Origin: Halocynthiibacter sp.
GTDB taxonomy: Bacteria > Pseudomonadota > Alphaproteobacteria > Rhodobacterales > Rhodobacteraceae
Assembly (NCBI GenBank): GCA_047631555.1
Contig: JBLHZY010000002.1
Coordinates: forward strand, 353,745-417,744
Reading direction: 5' to 3'
Length of the DNA: 64,000 bases
Shown: positions 22,165 through 28,727 of the stretch, in pieces
Layout: every line of letters begins with the position of its first letter
Position numbering within the stretch: position 1 is the stretch's first letter
Position numbers and translations under genes: made by a program
Notes under the pieces: model-generated
What the model was told of the DNA's origin: nothing
Databases searched by the model: none
Seen by the model: the letters and a program-made list of their open reading frames with translations, nothing else

Positions 22165-22992
22165 ATGTCCAACGCTCAACTAGAAGCTGCCATCGAGGCC
22201 GCTTGGGATGCCCGCGACACGATTACCCCCGCCACAACAGGTGAAACACGCGAGGCGATTGAAGATACATTGAACGCTTTGGATAGCGGCACTTTGCGCG
22301 TAGCTGAGAAGCAATCCGATGGCTCATGGTTCGTAAACCAGTGGGCGAAGAAGGCCGTTTTGCTGGGTTTTCGGATCAAGGATATGGAAGCGCATGAAGG
22401 CGGCCCACAAAATGGCGGCTGGTGGGACAAGGTCGATAGCAAGTTCAAGGGTTGGGGCGAAAATCAGTGGAAGGCGGCAGGCTTTCGCGCGGTTCCCAAT
22501 GCTGTTGTGCGCAAGTCGGCGTTCATTGCGCCGGGCGTTGTTTTGATGCCCTCGTTTGTGAACCTCGGCGCCTATGTTGACGAGGGCACGATGGTTGACG
22601 CTTGGGCGACTGTGGGCTCCTGCGCGCAGATCGGCAAAAACGTTCACCTTTCTGGCGGCGTTGGCATCGGCGGCGTATTGGAGCCGATGCAAGCGGGCCC
22701 GACGATCATTGAGGATAACTGCTTTATCGGCGCGCGCTCCGAGGTGGTTGAGGGCTGCATCATTCGCGAAGGCTCGGTTCTTGGGATGGGCGTTTTCATC
22801 GGCCAATCGACCAAGATTGTTGATCGCGAAACCGGCGAAGTGACTTATGGCGAAGTGCCACCCTATTCGGTTGTTGTTGCAGGTTCCATGCCTTCCAAAA
22901 ACGGCGTTAACCTTTACTGCGCTGTGATCGTAAAACGCGTTGACGAGCGGACCCGTTCAAAGACTGGCATCAACGAGCTACTGCGTGACTGA
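22165..22992 (+). CDS. dapD: 2,3,4,5-tetrahydropyridine-2,6-dicarboxylate N-succinyltransferase.
   Basis: 275 aa from ATG 22165 ([18 protein letters not shown]...). It has hexapeptide-repeat left-handed beta-helix sequence and the typical C-terminus. Confidence 0.9.
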
Positions 22993-23353
22993 TCAGCCCA
23001 AAAAGCCCAAGAAACCCTCGCGCCAGAAGGTCTATACCCTTCTGGTCGAGGTGGGCCGCAAGGAGGGCGATGGCCTTCCCAAAGGCGCGACGGGCGGGGC
23101 TTTGATGCTTTATGCCAGTGGTGTGGATGAGGCCGAAGCCGTACGCGAAAGCGTGGCGATCCTCAAACAGGCCGACCTCGCGCCGCTTGATGTGACGGGC
23201 TATGGCACGCTGGAAGAGCGGCTGGCCGAGGGCCATGATATTGCGGAGGATGAGCGTGCGCTGATGCAGCGCGCTTTGGACGAGAATTCCGTTGTTGTGG
23301 CGCAGCTTACGCCATTCTTTGAGGATGGTAAGGGCAAGAAAAAGCCGAGCTAG
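22985..23353 (+). CDS. Hypothetical small protein with basic N- and C-terminal tails.
   Basis: The ORF overlaps the dapD stop (GTG 22985 within cGTGacTGA). I recognise no family. The start is uncertain; the track gives 22940. Confidence 0.4.
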
Positions 23354-23374
23354 GCTTGATGGTTTTGGCGCCGT

Positions 23375-24421
23375 TTACAGAGCGCCAAACCACTTGCGAT
23401 AAATCCGCGTATAGGTGCCATCTTCGCGCAATTTCAGCAGGCTTTGATTGATCGGCTCTGCCAAAGCGCTGCCCGAGGGCAAGGCGATCCCATAATTTTC
23501 GCGCAAGAAGATTGGCCCGACAAGCTGTGAGGCGGGGCCTTTGGTTGTATGGGCGTAATAGGCCAGGATCGGCGCATCAAAAACAACGGCGTCGAGCTCC
23601 AATTGCTCAAAGCTGCTCAGCATCATCTGTAAATCGCTAAAGGCGACAAAGCGCATATCGCGCGTTTCTAGGAAATTGGCGGCAGTTGAGCCTTCAATCG
23701 TTCCAACACGTTTGCCGTTGAGATCGTTCACCTCGTTTACCGAGGACTGGATCGCATTAACGGTCAAAACGGATGTGATCTTCGCAACGAAAATAGAGAC
23801 GAAGAAGAGCGAAGACACCACAAGGAAAACGCCAAAGAAACGCCCTGCTGCAGAGCGGGGCGCGCGTTCTTCAAAGCCGCCATTTACGATTAGGTTGAGC
23901 GCCCACCAAAAGGCGGGAAACATCGCCGATTTGGCCGGCAGATCGAAATAGGGCTGAGCTTTGCGCTCAAACCGCCACATCAGCATGCCGGCTGCGAGCA
24001 GGGCAACGAAGGCCGCGATGATGGCAAGGATCAGCTCGCCCGAAAAGATCACGGACCAGATCGAGCCAACGCTTCCCGTGGAATGGACCATGATCTGAAG
24101 GCCGCTCTCAAAGATTGGCTGCGAGAAATCCATCACTTGTTCGCGCTGGGATGTCACCGAAATATTCGCAACGGCCGCATCGACTTCGCCGCGCTCAACA
24201 AGGCCGAGCATATCAGAGAATTTTTCGACCCGAACCAAGCTGTATTCGCGGCCCAAATCCTTTGAAACGGCTTCCCAAAGATCGATGCTAAAGCCACGAT
24301 CGTTGCCGTCTTCAACAAGCGAAAACGGCGGGCGCGTGACTGTTGCGATGCGCAAATCTTGGGCAAAAAGCCCTGTTGCCCAGACGACAAGCGTCATTGT
24401 CAGTAGTAGCAAGCGTTTCAT
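23375..24421 (-). CDS. Periplasmic amino-acid-binding (SBP_bac_3-like) protein interrupted by a two-TM plus re-entrant pore module: a GluR0-type prokaryotic ligand-gated channel architecture.
   Basis: The order is signal peptide (MKRLLLLTMTLVVWATGLFA), then an S1-like lobe. This is followed by TM ILAIIAAFVALLAAGMLMW, a pore-like FPAFWWALNLIVNGGFEE and TM FFGVFLVVSSLFFVSIFVA. An S2-like lobe ends the protein (GKRVGTIEGSTAANFL...YGIALPSGS...W). The start is at ATG 24421. Confidence 0.7.
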   Translation of the reverse strand: MKRLLLLTMTLVVWATGLFAQDLRIATVTRPPFSLVEDGNDRGFSIDLWEAVSKDLGREYSLVRVEKFSDMLGLVERGEVDAAVANISVTSQREQVMDFSQPIFESGLQIMVHSTGSVGSIWSVIFSGELILAIIAAFVALLAAGMLMWRFERKAQPYFDLPAKSAMFPAFWWALNLIVNGGFEERAPRSAAGRFFGVFLVVSSLFFVSIFVAKITSVLTVNAIQSSVNEVNDLNGKRVGTIEGSTAANFLETRDMRFVAFSDLQMMLSSFEQLELDAVVFDAPILAYYAHTTKGPASQLVGPIFLRENYGIALPSGSALAEPINQSLLKLREDGTYTRIYRKWFGAL

Positions 24422-24513
24422 GTATCTTCCCCAGATTCGACCCTGTATCGCATGAAATCCCGCAGATTCACAATCAAGGAAACGCATGTGAAGCCTTGAA
24501 ACCGCGGCAAATC

Positions 24514-25614
24514 TTAGGCGCTTAGGGCGGAAAGCAAGGTCGCTGTTTCATAGTCGCGCAGCGCTGGGCGCACGACAGCATGATGGCGCGGGATAGCCGA
24601 AGGGGGCATCGCGCCGATCGGCGTGGTTGCCGCGAGTTCCGGCGCATTGGCCAGCCCGCCAACAAAAAGGCTTTCGCCCCAGGCGCCGCCCATATTGATG
24701 CATTCATGGGTATCCAGCAGGATATGATGATAGCGCATTGGCATCCGCCCGGCATTAAGTCGCGCGCCTTTGGAGGCGAGCAGATGACGCGCCTCAACCA
24801 GAACATCGCTTTCGCCAAACAGGTATTCCGCTTCGATCCCAGAGATCATCATTCGGTGATCTTGGGCGACGGTAATATCGTGATCGAGCCCAAAGTAGGG
24901 GGCGCGAAGCGTTATGGGCGCGAACTGTCCGGCCATGGGCACATCGCGCGTAATGATCCAGCGGATCGGGGCATAGGTTCCTGCCGCCGTGGCAACCATA
25001 TCGCCGCGCCGCAGCCGCTCTATCCGGCGCGCGCCAAGATCGGTTGCAATCAAAGTGCCTGCGCCAATGCCGGGCATAAGACCCACGGGTTCAATCGCAT
25101 CAGAGACGGCGAAAAGGCGGATTTCGGGATCAAAATAGCGCCGCATGCGATCGGTCGAAAGGCGGGCGATATCCGTTGCGGGAATGGGCGCTGGATTATC
25201 AAATTCAGTTTGTTTCAGGACCGCGTTATCAAGGTCTTCGATGCTCAACAGGCCCGAGCGATTTGGCGCGTCCCATGAATAGGTAATCCGCAGGCGCGCC
25301 TCGGCCGACGGCATCGGCATGGTGAGGCGGATATCAGAGCGATTTTCGCCTTGTTCAACCCGCACACAAAGCGCACCACCCGGCGCGAGGGACATATTCA
25401 GCGCGCGTTTCCAACCGATCTGATCGGCGAAATCGATCAGGGTGCGGCGCTCTTTTTGATCCGCTGAGGCACGCAGTTCAAGCACGAGGCTGCCGCGCGA
25501 CAAAAGCGTATTGGCCAGAGAAGCTTCGGTATTGGAATGAACGCGCGGCGCTTGGCCGAGCCCCTGCAAATTGAACGCAGGCGATAGGAAATCGTTGACC
25601 CCAATCCAGCTCAT
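24514..25614 (-). CDS. Hint (Hedgehog/intein, Hint_2-type) domain protein with an unknown N-terminal domain of about 190 aa. The nucleophilic Cys is absent.
   Basis: The C-terminal half aligns by eye with the Hint domain of the upstream gene (GTLIATDLG...GDMVAT...YAPIRWI...HHILLDTHECI..GESL). The position of Cys-1 reads GIGAGT. Confidence 0.8.
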   Translation of the reverse strand: MSWIGVNDFLSPAFNLQGLGQAPRVHSNTEASLANTLLSRGSLVLELRASADQKERRTLIDFADQIGWKRALNMSLAPGGALCVRVEQGENRSDIRLTMPMPSAEARLRITYSWDAPNRSGLLSIEDLDNAVLKQTEFDNPAPIPATDIARLSTDRMRRYFDPEIRLFAVSDAIEPVGLMPGIGAGTLIATDLGARRIERLRRGDMVATAAGTYAPIRWIITRDVPMAGQFAPITLRAPYFGLDHDITVAQDHRMMISGIEAEYLFGESDVLVEARHLLASKGARLNAGRMPMRYHHILLDTHECINMGGAWGESLFVGGLANAPELAATTPIGAMPPSAIPRHHAVVRPALRDYETATLLSALSA

Positions 25615-25650
25615 TTAGCGCGCCTTTGTATGAGTTGGTGTGGTTTTCAT

Positions 25651-27264
25651 TTAGGCAACCATTTGTTCGCTAATGAGAATTTGCGCTTCAAAGGCTTTGA
25701 GCATCCTGCGTGCGGCGGGGCTATAACCGGCGCCGGTGTCTGGGTCCAGCTCGGGGAAAATGGTGCAAATTTCATCCAGCGTTTCGCGCTCAAACTGGTT
25801 CATAACGGCGGGTCCCGGCAGGAAGCTTTCTGTGGGAAGGCCTTCGGAATAGATCACTTGATGGCGATCAAACAGCAGATGCACATATTCAACTTCGCCG
25901 CCCTCAACGGGGCGAATGGTCAGATCGTTTACGAGGTCTTTCGCCGCCACCAGCACTTCGGCATCGCCAAACAGAAGATCGGCCATGTGATTGCGGATCA
26001 AAACGCGGTGCTGGGGAGAGAGCAGCAATTCGCGATGCCCCTCGCCAAGCGCGCCAGCCCGGATACGGATGGGCGCGTAATTGCCTTGCGCCGCGACGGT
26101 ACGCCGCCCGAGCCAGCGAACCGGTTGGGGCCCGTCGTCATGGGTCATCACCAGCGAGCCGGGCTCAAGGCTTTCAACCGGGCGTTCGCCGCTTGGCGTC
26201 ATAATCATTGTGCCAGCAACAAAGCAGGGGATCGTGTTGAGCGTTACAAAACCAACATCGGTATCGCCGGTCGAGCTTGCCACTTCATAGGTGAAGCTAA
26301 CCGCTTCTTCATCCGTATCGGTCGTTACATCGAATGTGCCGTCGGCCAGAAGGGTAACGGTTTGACCCGTTGCCACGGTAACGCTGTCGCCGACATTGAC
26401 CGCGACGCTGTTCACATGGGTGATCGTCAGTGTGCCGCCTGTGGCGTTGATATCGTTGGCCAGAACATCGAGGTTTTTGGTCGCGCCGATGAAAATATCG
26501 GAGTTGTCATCCATCGCAACAAGCGTCGTTTGAACCGAGTTGCCGGCGATCAAGAGAGAGGAGTCATAGCTGCTGTCGGCAACATCTGCGATGCCGATAC
26601 GGATCGAGTTTACCTCGCCACTGACAACGGGAATTGTCAGCGTCATGGTGATGGTGAACCCGTCCATCTCGGTGTTGTAATCATCATTCGTGTTGTCGAC
26701 GAAGAGATTGTAATTGTTCGTTGCGTTGATATTGCCAACGCTGGCGTCGCCAGTACCGACCGTCATCGGAACATGGGTCCCGTTGACCCAAACACCCACG
26801 ACATCGTTGTAAATGGAGGCGGCATATTCGGGATATTCTTCGGAGGAGAAGACGAATTGCATCGTCATCACGTCGCCCGTTGGGATGAAATCCACATCAA
26901 GCCAAGAGGCGTCATACGTGCTTGTGCCCGCGATGGCATTGAAGTTTGCGTTGTTATTGACACCAGAGGTATTGGTCGAGGTGTTCGTGCTTTGGTTGGA
27001 TTGCGCTGGCGACGGATTCCACCACGGGCCGCTGTTGCCGGCGGAATTGGTGAAGTCTTGCGCATAGCCCGTCGAGAGGATCACGCCGGTATCGCCGGGC
27101 GTTACACCGGGCGAAACCGTATCGCCATTGGAATAGACGCCAGAGCTGCGCGCGTCCCCAGTGTAGGACGCATTCACAACCGTTACGCCGTCGCCAAAGA
27201 TCGTCTGGGCCATAAGCATAGCCGACGCATTCGTGTTAATCGGAAGTTCCGATGCCGCAACCAT
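25651..27264 (-). CDS. Large Hint_2-domain protein with a choice-of-anchor-L-like N-terminal domain and cadherin/VCBS-like middle region, ending in a C-terminal Hint domain with Cys-1.
   Basis: N-terminal blocks are ASYTGD..SSGVYSNG, FVFSSEEYPEY, NDVVGVWVNG and IGIADVADSSYDSSLLI. The middle carries VLANDIN. The Hint domain starts at IPCFVAGTMIMTPSG and ends with HLLFDRHQVIYSEGLPTESF. The start is set at ATG 27264 behind GGAGG. Confidence 0.8.
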   Translation of the reverse strand: MVAASELPINTNASAMLMAQTIFGDGVTVVNASYTGDARSSGVYSNGDTVSPGVTPGDTGVILSTGYAQDFTNSAGNSGPWWNPSPAQSNQSTNTSTNTSGVNNNANFNAIAGTSTYDASWLDVDFIPTGDVMTMQFVFSSEEYPEYAASIYNDVVGVWVNGTHVPMTVGTGDASVGNINATNNYNLFVDNTNDDYNTEMDGFTITMTLTIPVVSGEVNSIRIGIADVADSSYDSSLLIAGNSVQTTLVAMDDNSDIFIGATKNLDVLANDINATGGTLTITHVNSVAVNVGDSVTVATGQTVTLLADGTFDVTTDTDEEAVSFTYEVASSTGDTDVGFVTLNTIPCFVAGTMIMTPSGERPVESLEPGSLVMTHDDGPQPVRWLGRRTVAAQGNYAPIRIRAGALGEGHRELLLSPQHRVLIRNHMADLLFGDAEVLVAAKDLVNDLTIRPVEGGEVEYVHLLFDRHQVIYSEGLPTESFLPGPAVMNQFERETLDEICTIFPELDPDTGAGYSPAARRMLKAFEAQILISEQMVA

Positions 27265-27572
27265 ACCCGCCTCCAGGTTCACTTTTTGGCAGGCGGATGG
27301 CGCAACTGTCCCGTGGCTTTTGCACGGAATTCTTGTTTATTTTGCCACTCGTGGTGCGGATCTGGTTTTTTTATGATCCGCGTGCCCTGCCTCAGAGCAT
27401 TATTGATTGCCGCCAAGCTGACACGAAAAAGTTGAAAAGTTAACAAGTTCTTACGATGCGACTGCTGCGACAGCATTTACCTGTCGCAAAAGCGCCACAG
27501 CGGGCTTGCGCCAAAGATTGCAGCAAGGCGCGGATGCGGGTAACTCTTTTGGCTAAAGTCCTGTTTTGAAAG

Positions 27573-28727
27573 ATGCCCATGAGCCAGCCTATTGATCCTG
27601 TTGAGCTTACCGCGCGCCTGTTGCGCTGCGCCTCCGTTACGCCTGATGAGGGCGGCGCGCTTGTCCTTTTGCAGGGGTTACTGGAGGGGGCAGGCTTTGA
27701 ATGTACGCGGGTTGATCGCGGCGAAGTGGCCAATCTTTATGCGCGTTGGGGCGCCAAGGGGGCGGCGCGCAGTTTTGGCTTTAACGGGCATACGGATGTT
27801 GTGCCTGTGGGCGATGTCGCAGCTTGGGCGCATGATCCTTTTGGCGGTGTGATTGAGGATGGTGTGCTTTGGGGGCGCGGTGCGCAGGATATGAAATCCG
27901 GCGTTGCGGCCTTTGCCGCTGCGGCGATTGATTTCGTGCGCGAAACGCCGCCCGACGGGGCCGTGATCCTTGCGATAACTGGCGATGAAGAGGGGCCTGC
28001 GCTTGATGGAACAATAGCGCTGCTGGATTGGATGAAGGCTAAGAATGAGGCGATGAGTGCCTGTCTTGTGGGCGAGCCGACCTGCCCAAGCGAGATGGGC
28101 GAGATGATGAAAATCGGGCGCCGCGGATCGCTGAATGCGTTCTTTGTGGCGCGAGGCCAGCAGGGGCATGTCGCCTATCCGCACCGCTCGCGCAATCCTT
28201 TGCCTGCGCTGGTCAGCCTGCTTGATCGATTGGTTGCACGTGAATTGGATCAAGGCACCGATCATTTCGATGCCTCGACCTTCGCGATCACCACGATTGA
28301 TACCGGCAATACGGCGACGAATGTTATCCCCTCAGAGGCGCGCGCCACGATCAATATCCGTTTCAACGATGCCCATACGGGCGCGGCGCTCAGCGATTGG
28401 TTGCGCCAAGAGGCAGGCGCGATTGCCGCCGATACGGGCGTTGAGATCGACGTCAAAATCGGCATTTCGGGCGAGAGTTTTCTAACCCCTCCCGGCGCGC
28501 TTTCCGCGCTGATTGGCGATGCGGTTCTGGCTGAAACGGGCCGCGCGCCCGAGCTGAGCACATCTGGCGGCACGTCGGATGCACGCTTTATGAAGGATCA
28601 CTGCCCGGTGGTGGAATTTGGCCTTGTTGGGGATCGCATGCATCAGGTGGATGAGCGCGTTCCAGTGGCGCAAATCGAGACGCTCAAGCGGATTTATGGG
28701 CGCATTCTGGCGGGTTACTTTGCATGA
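27573..28727 (+). CDS. dapE: Succinyl-diaminopimelate desuccinylase (M20).
   Basis: Motifs [26 protein letters not shown] and the C-terminal GGTSDARF are present. Confidence 0.9.

Follow-up and report, generated by a model that had tools for sequence, protein, structure and literature searches.

What do two adjacent Hint-domain genes, divergent from dapE, do in a Halocynthiibacter sp. genome, and could both of their products process themselves? The genes, named here gene 1 and gene 2, were analyzed in a stretch of 64,000 nt (the window, C2:353745–417744 of a 3.13-Mb genome in six contigs), and the gene and element positions of the locus are 1-based within it. An initial annotation had read the pair as a cassette of Hedgehog-like layout, in which an N-terminal cargo precedes a Hint domain able to release or esterify it through an N-S acyl shift. 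For gene 1 this mechanism makes sense; it fails for gene 2, and within the family to which both proteins belong it is no novelty. On balance, we lean toward the view that the two genes make up an old Hint_2 operon passed on by vertical descent, encoding a secreted, self-cleaving protein and a non-processing partner. According to the list of open reading frames (ORFs), two same-strand ORFs fill positions 24514–27282 of the minus strand, located where the initial annotation had placed them:

25651–27264, minus strand: gene 1, an ORF of 537 aa (57 kDa), its start placed by orthologue alignment.
24514–25614, minus strand: gene 2, an ORF of 366 aa.
27573–28727, plus strand: dapE, the divergent neighbour that marks the fixed site of the cassette.

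The alignment of orthologues supports the ATG at 27264 (MVAASELPIN...), which had been chosen before, over the GTG at 27282 proposed by the ORF lister (a 543-aa frame). Gene 2 begins 36 nt past the gene 1 stop, and a scan of this gap detected no terminator-like site. The spacer between the gene 1 cassette and the divergent dapE measures 308 bp, close to the earlier estimate of about 300 bp.

The gene 1 protein is composed of a two-domain cargo, a Hint domain and a short tail:

26533–27213, minus strand: choice-of-anchor-L domain (NCBIfam NF038133), a predicted jelly-roll.
26239–26520, minus strand: Ig-like (Big_9) domain including VLANDIN (Pfam PF17963), with beta strands in the model.
25813–26229, minus strand: Hint_2 domain with intact catalytic residues (Pfam PF13403).
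25654–25812, minus strand: tail of 53 aa, delimited by paralogue and orthologue alignments.

Profile searches agree with the domains initially proposed for this protein. The choice-of-anchor-L-like domain, residues 24–250 in the 543-aa frame, scores 161.6 bits with NF038133 (cut-off 27, E 1.9e-47), and the VLANDIN region, described as cadherin/VCBS-like, is assigned by Pfam to the Ig-like family Big_9 with a marginal score (E 5.6e-5, 24.4 bits against 23.6). The Hint domain said to start at a Pro-Cys pair is a Hint_2 domain aligned from the first profile position at ...TIP/CFVAGT (E 2.1e-54, 184.3 bits against 28.4). It opens with Cys1 (Cys347, codon 26224–26226), preceded by Pro346, and its block B reads SPQH; Cys347 and the block-B His419 are invariant in 54 of 54 aligned orthologues, as are several tail residues. 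The domain ends at ...TESFLPG/PAV, with neither a terminal His-Asn nor a +1 Cys, Ser or Thr, and thus has no intein block G. It does not form the end of the protein, as its description as C-terminal had implied: the Hint folds are there, and conserved tails of 53 aa in gene 1 and 47 aa in gene 2 follow them. The gene 1 tail carries the motif ..EIC.IFPELDP.TG.GY..AARR.L+.FEA..L. The cargo (residues 1–346) has an isoelectric point (pI) of 4.05, with 3 Lys and Arg against 39 Asp and Glu, and contains no Cys at all.

A sequence search against solved structures returned noise only. An AlphaFold model of gene 1 was built from 54 orthologues, with a mean predicted local distance difference test (pLDDT) score of 73.8, and compared with known structures using Foldseek. 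Its N-terminal half resembles MAM, CBM35 and Eph-type jelly-rolls and the peptide-binding domains of FrhA and MpIBP, so that the predicted folds bear out the adhesin-like character first ascribed to this part. The C-terminal part matches the gp41-1, Prp8 and DnaB inteins and 2lwy, a bacterial intein-like (BIL) domain, with target-normalised template-modelling (TM) scores of 0.63–0.68, and the tail is modelled, at low confidence, as two helices. Within the choice-of-anchor-L domain, an Asn/Ser/Thr-rich low-complexity stretch (about 26950–27040, gene 1 residues ~75–105) holds an 11-aa insertion, SGPWWNPSPAQ, which is found in this genus only and coincides with a local dip of the GC content to 0.52.

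Gene 2 has a comparable layout:

25075–25614, minus strand: N-terminal domain of ~180 aa, a predicted concanavalin-A-like/laminin-G beta-sandwich.
24658–25062, minus strand: pseudo-Hint domain (Hint_2, PF13403).
24517–24657, minus strand: tail of 47 aa, defined by alignments (pLDDT 84–92).

It had been described as a second Hint protein with an unrelated N-terminal domain, 36 nt downstream of the first. The spacing, the Hint_2 match (E 6.9e-35, 121 bits against 28.4, from profile position 5) and the unrelated N-domain all stand, but the acyl-shift chemistry that had been extended to this Hint domain does not. In gene 2, Cys1 is replaced by Gly (PGIGAGT, compared with PCFVAGT in gene 1) and AQDH stands in place of SPQH. 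In 12 of 13 genera its orthologues have no Cys1, and most carry Gln in place of the block-B His, which makes gene 2 a conserved pseudo-Hint protein. Without Cys1, it should be unable to perform the acyl shift. One orthologue (L036, G020:C21, 7004–7993) has both a Cys at position 1 (CFAPST) and the block-B His (SHR), an exception that points to a reversion or to a late loss in the other genera. An internal Cys of gene 2 (THEC), considered as a class-3-intein-like nucleophile, was rejected since it is not conserved among orthologues.

No Pfam or NCBIfam family matches the N-terminal ~180 aa of gene 2. The AlphaFold model (50 homologues, pLDDT 91.9, predicted TM score (pTM) 0.90) shows a lectin sandwich packed on a Hint fold; in Foldseek the sandwich matches laminin LG, galectins, CBM40 and neurexin LNS domains, and the best match of the Hint domain is the BUBL BIL2 domain 6y75. 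Taken together, the Hint parts of the two models match inteins and BIL domains with target-normalised TM scores of 0.60–0.68; with the Pfam matches, this settles the check by profile search proposed in the initial annotation in favour of Hint-like domains. The gene 2 tail ends in the motif R..L+.[YF]E...L, as it does in catalytically intact members of the family.

The pair is an old fixture of its chromosomal site. It is found at one position beside dapE in at least 31 genera. In a search of 41 related genomes, the sister species and 11 further genera turned out to have full-length gene 2 relatives, many of which adjoin an upstream Hint ORF of 530–560 aa. Among 12 genomes fetched with flanking sequence, 11 are syntenic at the locus and 8 of these 11 carry both genes at full length; the twelfth contig (G010) shows gene 2 alone next to dapE. 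Gene 2 stands alone in three genomes, and gene 1 is truncated in one. From dapD the syntenic order runs through a small ORF and, in some cases, a GluR0-like gene to gene 2 and gene 1, which lie on the opposite strand, and on to dapE, usually accompanied by GNAT, DUF2064 and RNase R genes. The two Hint genes are separated by 2–114 nt in 9 other genomes. Identity between genera amounts to 57–70% for gene 1, whose range among the flanked genomes, 57–68%, is close to the 65–72% of dapE; gene 2, at 29–38%, evolves fast. Roseovarius, Lutimaribacter and Cognatishimia are among the named sources of orthologues.

Co-occurrence of the two genes across genomes, which the initial annotation had put forward as a check, is strong. 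In 121 genomes of the bacterial family, true orthologues of the gene 1 head are present in 50, gene 2 in at least 48, and both in 34, with the genes adjacent and in the same order in about 31 of the 34 (Fisher p 1.7e-7, uncorrected for phylogeny and with incomplete detection of gene 2). Between the small ORF and dapE (22940–27572 in the window; loci L088–L100), the cassette is either present or absent as a unit, and in several of 13 genomes without either Hint gene dapE comes after dapD and the small ORF, all three being on one strand. A mobile island was rejected on the grounds that no marked GC anomaly was seen and that synteny extends across genera, no tRNA or integrase scan being part of this assessment. 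Likewise, a functional link to dapD and dapE through diaminopimelate found no support: their adjacency follows from the fixed site that the cassette occupies and hence gives no evidence of a link to peptidoglycan.

Just downstream of gene 2, at 23375–24487 on the minus strand, lies the GluR0-like binding-protein/channel gene, a variable extra of the locus. It is adjacent in some genera (G001, G016 and G023), missing from the locus in others (G015, G003 and G005), and lies on the other strand elsewhere in the locus in G022.

How far the layout of gene 1 is peculiar to this locus was assessed by a phmmer search with its 198-aa Hint-plus-tail module against 1.84 billion cluster representatives (50% identity), which returned 19,603 matches at E ≤ 0.001. 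In the best 150 of these 19,603 representatives, on which the following statistics rest, the module lies at the extreme C-terminus behind cargos of 7–3025 residues. Cys1 could be placed in 137 of the 150, where the median distance from it to the C-terminus is 189 aa (183–202 aa at the 5th–95th percentile). The nucleophile itself is present in 147 of the 150 and the block-B His in 148, and the residue at –1 is Ile, Val or Pro, never Gly. At least three RTX cores were counted in 69 of the 76 cargos longer than 400 aa, and a crude rule for Sec-like N-termini recognized none among 132.

The genome under study follows the same pattern. All of its 13 Hint_2 ORFs carry the domain C-terminally, followed by tails of 46–70 aa in 12 and of 15 aa in one, with the common motif ..R.E...LFPEL....AR..L+..EA..L. 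RTX repeats run straight into the Hint domain in 4 of these 13 paralogues, and inspection by eye of all 13 found no Sec or Tat signal, in keeping, as is the count of Sec-like N-termini in the family, with the absence of a Sec signal initially noted for gene 1. Position 1 is Cys in 7, Ser in 1 and Gly or Ala in 5. The genome contains two more neighbouring Hint_2 pairs, C1:684811–691564 (1472 and 634 aa) and C1:1213069–1218887 (frames of 887 and 1009 aa), the latter divergent, and all four genes encode RTX-repeat proteins.

The order of cargo and Hint domain is therefore the norm of the family: the Hedgehog-like layout pointed out at first is present, but it is the rule for Hint_2 proteins and nothing unusual. 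In this respect the locus is an ordinary member of a large and already catalogued family. The head of gene 1 also opens giant ORFs in other genera. Three that were fetched (1945, 2436 and 3460 aa) contain 31–63 RTX cores and end in a Cys1-Hint-plus-tail module of 193–204 aa. As these giants share both head and module with gene 1, gene 1 corresponds to the same protein without the RTX middle.

The identities of the domains, the pattern of catalytic residues, the architecture of the family, synteny and co-occurrence are observed; the export route, the cleavage, the fate of the thioester and the role of gene 2 are inferred. Gene 1 most likely encodes a short, acidic, type-I-secreted surface protein that would cleave itself at Pro346-Cys347. 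The protein, acidic, Cys-free and without a Sec signal, would be exported by a type I secretion system recognizing its C-terminal module, and the Hint domain would perform an N-S acyl shift at Pro346-Cys347. Resolution of the thioester, most simply by hydrolysis, would yield a ~36-kDa lectin/Ig fragment and a ~21-kDa fragment made of the Hint domain and the tail. Gene 2, which keeps the Hint fold and the tail, would stay unprocessed because its nucleophile is lost, and is probably a stable lectin-like partner or a regulator of gene 1.

Type I export seems the best-supported route because the giant RTX relatives share the head and the module, the cargo is acidic and devoid of Cys, and the genome encodes type I ABC and HlyD-type pairs above curated cut-offs (TIGR01842, TIGR01843). 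Gene 1 fits the profile of a signal-free, acidic, Cys-poor type I substrate, a matter of compatibility rather than proof. One ABC/HlyD-type locus, C1:410271–413266, has in-frame TAA stops in both matches and may represent a pseudogene or a sequencing error.

Several observations weigh against this combination of type I export and self-cleavage. No GGxGxD RTX nonapeptide repeats are seen in the gene 1 or gene 2 sequences, and no type I secretion genes adjoin the locus or the other Hint genes checked. With a pI of 6.2 gene 2 is not acidic and may therefore stay inside the cell. Type I signals are usually far less conserved than the Hint tail motif, so the tail may instead contribute to the fold or to the chemistry. 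In classical inteins, Pro, Ile or Val at –1 disfavours N-terminal cleavage, and the identification of Hint_2 with the B-type BIL domains is an assumption. Moreover, 5 of the 13 paralogues have no nucleophile at all, and the dead copies retain the tail, which indicates that cleavage is not the sole role of the module. Finally, no mention of Hint proteins was found in the exoproteome literature searched.

The last of the sequence-based objections leads to a different reading, in which the Hint-plus-tail module is mainly a structural domain for export or targeting, with self-cleavage secondary or not needed, and both two-part proteins work intact. We consider it unlikely, although the 5 paralogues and nearly all gene 2 orthologues that have lost the nucleophile keep both the fold and R..L+.[YF]EA..L, and the domains and tail of gene 2 are modelled as one compact unit (pTM 0.90). 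The invariance of Cys1 and the block-B His in gene 1 orthologues, and their presence in 147 and 148 of the best 150 representatives, would be hard to explain without catalysis. Catalysis could, however, end in covalent transfer instead of hydrolysis: a nucleophile of the envelope, such as an amine or hydroxyl of lipid, polysaccharide or peptidoglycan, would attack the Pro346 thioester and anchor the lectin cargo autocatalytically, the conserved helix-loop-helix tail recruiting the acceptor. This idea, to which we give rather little weight, is modelled on the Hedgehog-cholesterol ester and on the ubiquitin-like conjugation by ciliate BUBL proteins. The name and definition of choice-of-anchor-L refer to its occurrence with interchangeable sorting signals at the C-terminus, which lead to covalent anchoring, and in gene 1 the Hint-plus-tail module occupies the position of such a signal. 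The tail, with its two predicted helices, stands where Hedgehog has its sterol-recognition region, the gene 2 Hint domain has BUBL BIL2 as its best structural match, and an amine attack on the thioester belongs to the proposed splicing mechanism of A-type BIL domains (PMC4031507). Against transfer, B-type BIL domains give cleavage products according to reviews (PMC4031507; PMC7765530), neither an acceptor nor any sequence similarity between the tail and Hedgehog was found, Pfam gave Hint_2 only, and the dapD and dapE neighbours, explained by the fixed site, do not point to peptidoglycan.

Both proteins might also be cytoplasmic, with intracellular processing serving a role unrelated to secretion. 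The missing Sec and Tat signals of the 13 paralogues, the lack of adjacent secretion genes and the ordinary pI of gene 2 would agree with this location, yet it appears improbable given that RTX repeats, which are a hallmark of type I substrates, are strongly tied to the family as a whole, that the Cys-free gene 1 cargo is extremely acidic, and that lectin, MAM, CBM and Ig folds are typical of extracellular proteins. Since polymorphic toxins employ Hint domains as releasing peptidases and the two genes are tightly linked, a toxin/immunity cassette was considered as well, with the Hint domain of gene 1 releasing a C-terminal toxin and gene 2 as the immunity gene. We regard it as extremely improbable, the architecture contradicting it: the Hint domain is followed only by a conserved, non-polymorphic tail of 47–53 aa, gene 2 belongs to the Hint paralogues, PADLOC gave no match and Pfam assigns Hint_2, not PT-HINT. 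Gene 1, 57–70% identical across genera at a fixed locus, is moreover not hypervariable. The contrast with polymorphic toxins drawn in the initial annotation was thus well founded, with no toxin after the Hint domain. A true intein or an A-type BIL domain was also rejected, the module being terminal, with a tail of 47–53 aa, and having neither His-Asn nor a C-extein.

The region upstream of gene 1 contains two inverted repeats, both of which exist exactly as initially reported, but only the first finds support when other genera are compared:

27356–27381, plus strand: inverted repeat 1, GCGGATC-N12-GATCCGC, forming hairpin 1 of a conserved element.
27383–27410, plus strand: small hairpin 2 with the loop CTGCCTC (27387–27393) and a T-rich run after it, found in 33 genomes.
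27466–27488, no strand assigned: inverted repeat 2, TGCGACAG/CTGTCGCA, a probable chance repeat.

The arms of the two repeats occupy 27356–27362/27375–27381 and 27466–27473/27481–27488, and by our own estimate about 0.9 and 0.2 such repeats, with arms of 7 and 8 nt, are expected by chance in 308 bp. In a first alignment of the gene 1-dapE spacers from 9 genomes (8 genera), one block is sharply conserved, TGCCCTGCCTC(A/G)GG, which on the plus strand adjoins the 3' side of repeat 1. Its CTGCCTC core occurs in 33 genomes from 32 genera and is invariant in the 31 genera aligned. The stem of hairpin 2 varies around this core over 3–5 bp (CCC/GGG, ACC/GGT, CGCC/GGCG, GGACC/GGTCC, GATCC/GGATC, CTC/GAG), with a covariation score of 0.19 against 0.10 ± 0.03 in shuffles, 2 of 500 of which reach 0.19; this support is modest, because sliding the register by one column gives almost the same score. 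Hairpin 1 has a GC-rich stem that differs in sequence between genera and keeps the same position, with a mean best perfect stem of 4.5 nt against 3.23 ± 0.22 (0 of 2000 shuffles reach 4.5). In 23 of 31 genera the more stable fold is that of the plus strand, in the sense of dapE (Wilcoxon p 0.008), and G-U pairs favour this strand too. For repeat 2, the sister species already has a mismatch in one arm and other genera show no aligned counterpart, so it is probably a chance repeat.

The two-hairpin element belongs to the cassette. It is kept where gene 2 alone remains, and it is absent upstream of dapE in the 13 genomes that have neither Hint gene, which rules against a dapE leader inherited together with dapE. 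In this genome the element is single-copy, nhmmer finding this locus only, and Rfam holds no family for it, the sole hit being ctRNA_pGA1 (E 0.57), located on a different stretch. That CTGCCTC marks a repeat or a regulon site across the genome was rejected: 5 exact 11-mers were found against 2.7 expected, and all but the one at this locus lie inside genes. Candidate roles for the element are a leader or attenuator of dapE, an antisense or small RNA opposite the 5' end of gene 1, or a control site of gene 1. Elsewhere in the upstream region, a sigma-70 promoter scan found nothing, and a CtrA-box-like sequence at 27440–27454, TTAACAAGTTCTTAC (TTAA-N7-TTAC), was dismissed as it is conserved in the sister species only; GTTAAC blocks recur at varying positions in the spacers of other genera.

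As far as the literature searched shows, three features of this locus are new: the conserved operon of an active Hint and a pseudo-Hint gene at a fixed site, the head common to gene 1 and the giant RTX-Hint proteins, and the cassette-specific two-hairpin element. The same literature reports no cellular role for the Hint_2 proteins of Rhodobacterales, consistent with the initial statement that they have no established function. Hint_2 is among the most expanded gene families of marine Rhodobacterales, and 'bloomer' Rhodobacteraceae, which respond fast, were reported to be enriched in the domain in a comparative study (PMC12487129). In this setting the locus offers a small and tractable model, namely a 57-kDa RTX-free protein with an intact active site alongside a natural dead-Hint partner, in a fixed, conserved context and with a private candidate regulatory RNA. 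The location of the gene 1 protein, its cleavage and the fate of the new C-terminus would inform the whole Hint_2 family. A bolder proposal, which we hold to be a long shot, is that the Hint-plus-tail module acts as an 'auto-sortase': after export without a signal peptide, the thioester at Pro346 would be passed to an envelope acceptor recruited by the tail, so that the lectin head is anchored covalently, while gene 2 docks to or restrains the active Hint domain and the two-hairpin RNA controls expression. If so, this would be a bacterial Hedgehog-like system of lipid or glycan modification, and a family of ~20,000 clusters would gain a function.

Comparison with known systems places gene 1, under the preferred reading of a secreted, self-cleaving protein, among several partial likenesses. 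A-type BIL domains and the PT-HINT domains of MafB and CdiA-type proteins share the Hint fold in proteins of secreted type but keep His-Asn before a variable toxin, and gene 1 and gene 2 have neither. The jelly-roll and Ig head of gene 1 recalls the peptide-binding domains of the type I secreted adhesins FrhA of Vibrio cholerae and MpIBP of Marinomonas primoryensis (Foldseek E 7e-6 to 2e-3), although with a low whole-chain TM score and 13–14% identity; to our knowledge, these adhesins have no Hint domain. With the self-processing RTX proteins of type I systems gene 1 shares its acidity, its paucity of Cys, the absence of an N-terminal signal and a C-terminal targeting region, and its giant relatives with the same head and module carry 31–63 RTX cores, whereas gene 1 and gene 2 have no RTX repeats and no adjacent ABC, HlyD or TolC genes. 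Nine predicted RTX proteins with Hedgehog/intein homology have been proposed to autoprocess (PMC3034196). The self-processing module of FrpC and ApxIVA differs in its chemistry: it is reported to carry out a Ca-dependent Asp-Pro cleavage that creates an isopeptide link, and is not described as a Hint domain (PMC7078468).

The Hedgehog Hog domain resembles gene 1 in having a cargo N-terminal to a Hint domain that starts with Cys-Phe, in the ~50-aa extra region after this domain, and in a chemistry that would begin with an N-S acyl shift. The residue before the Cys is Pro in gene 1 and Gly in Hog, so that the junction reads Pro-Cys-Phe instead of Gly-Cys-Phe; no Hog motifs are present, Pfam reporting no Hint-type family besides Hint_2 for gene 1 or gene 2; and the tail has a motif of its own, LFPEL...AR..L..EA..L, with nothing that points to a sterol or other adduct. 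The closest counterparts are the B-type BIL domains, which reviews describe as cleaving at their N-terminus without splicing and as having the intein motifs except the C-terminal one (PMC4031507; PMC7765530, citing Amitai et al. 2003 Mol Microbiol 47:61 and Dassa et al. 2004 JBC). Gene 1 likewise has intein blocks A and B (CF..GT and SPxH), with no C-terminal His-Asn and no +1 nucleophile, and like them its module lies at the end of variable alphaproteobacterial proteins without signal peptides, often RTX proteins. The B-type nucleophile and block-B His are found in gene 1 (C347 and H419) and not in gene 2. BIL domains have been described as lying in hypervariable regions of non-conserved proteins (PMC7765530). 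Gene 1 differs from this picture in being a conserved, mostly single-copy orthologue at a fixed locus, with a cargo free of RTX repeats and a catalytically dead paralogue as its partner.

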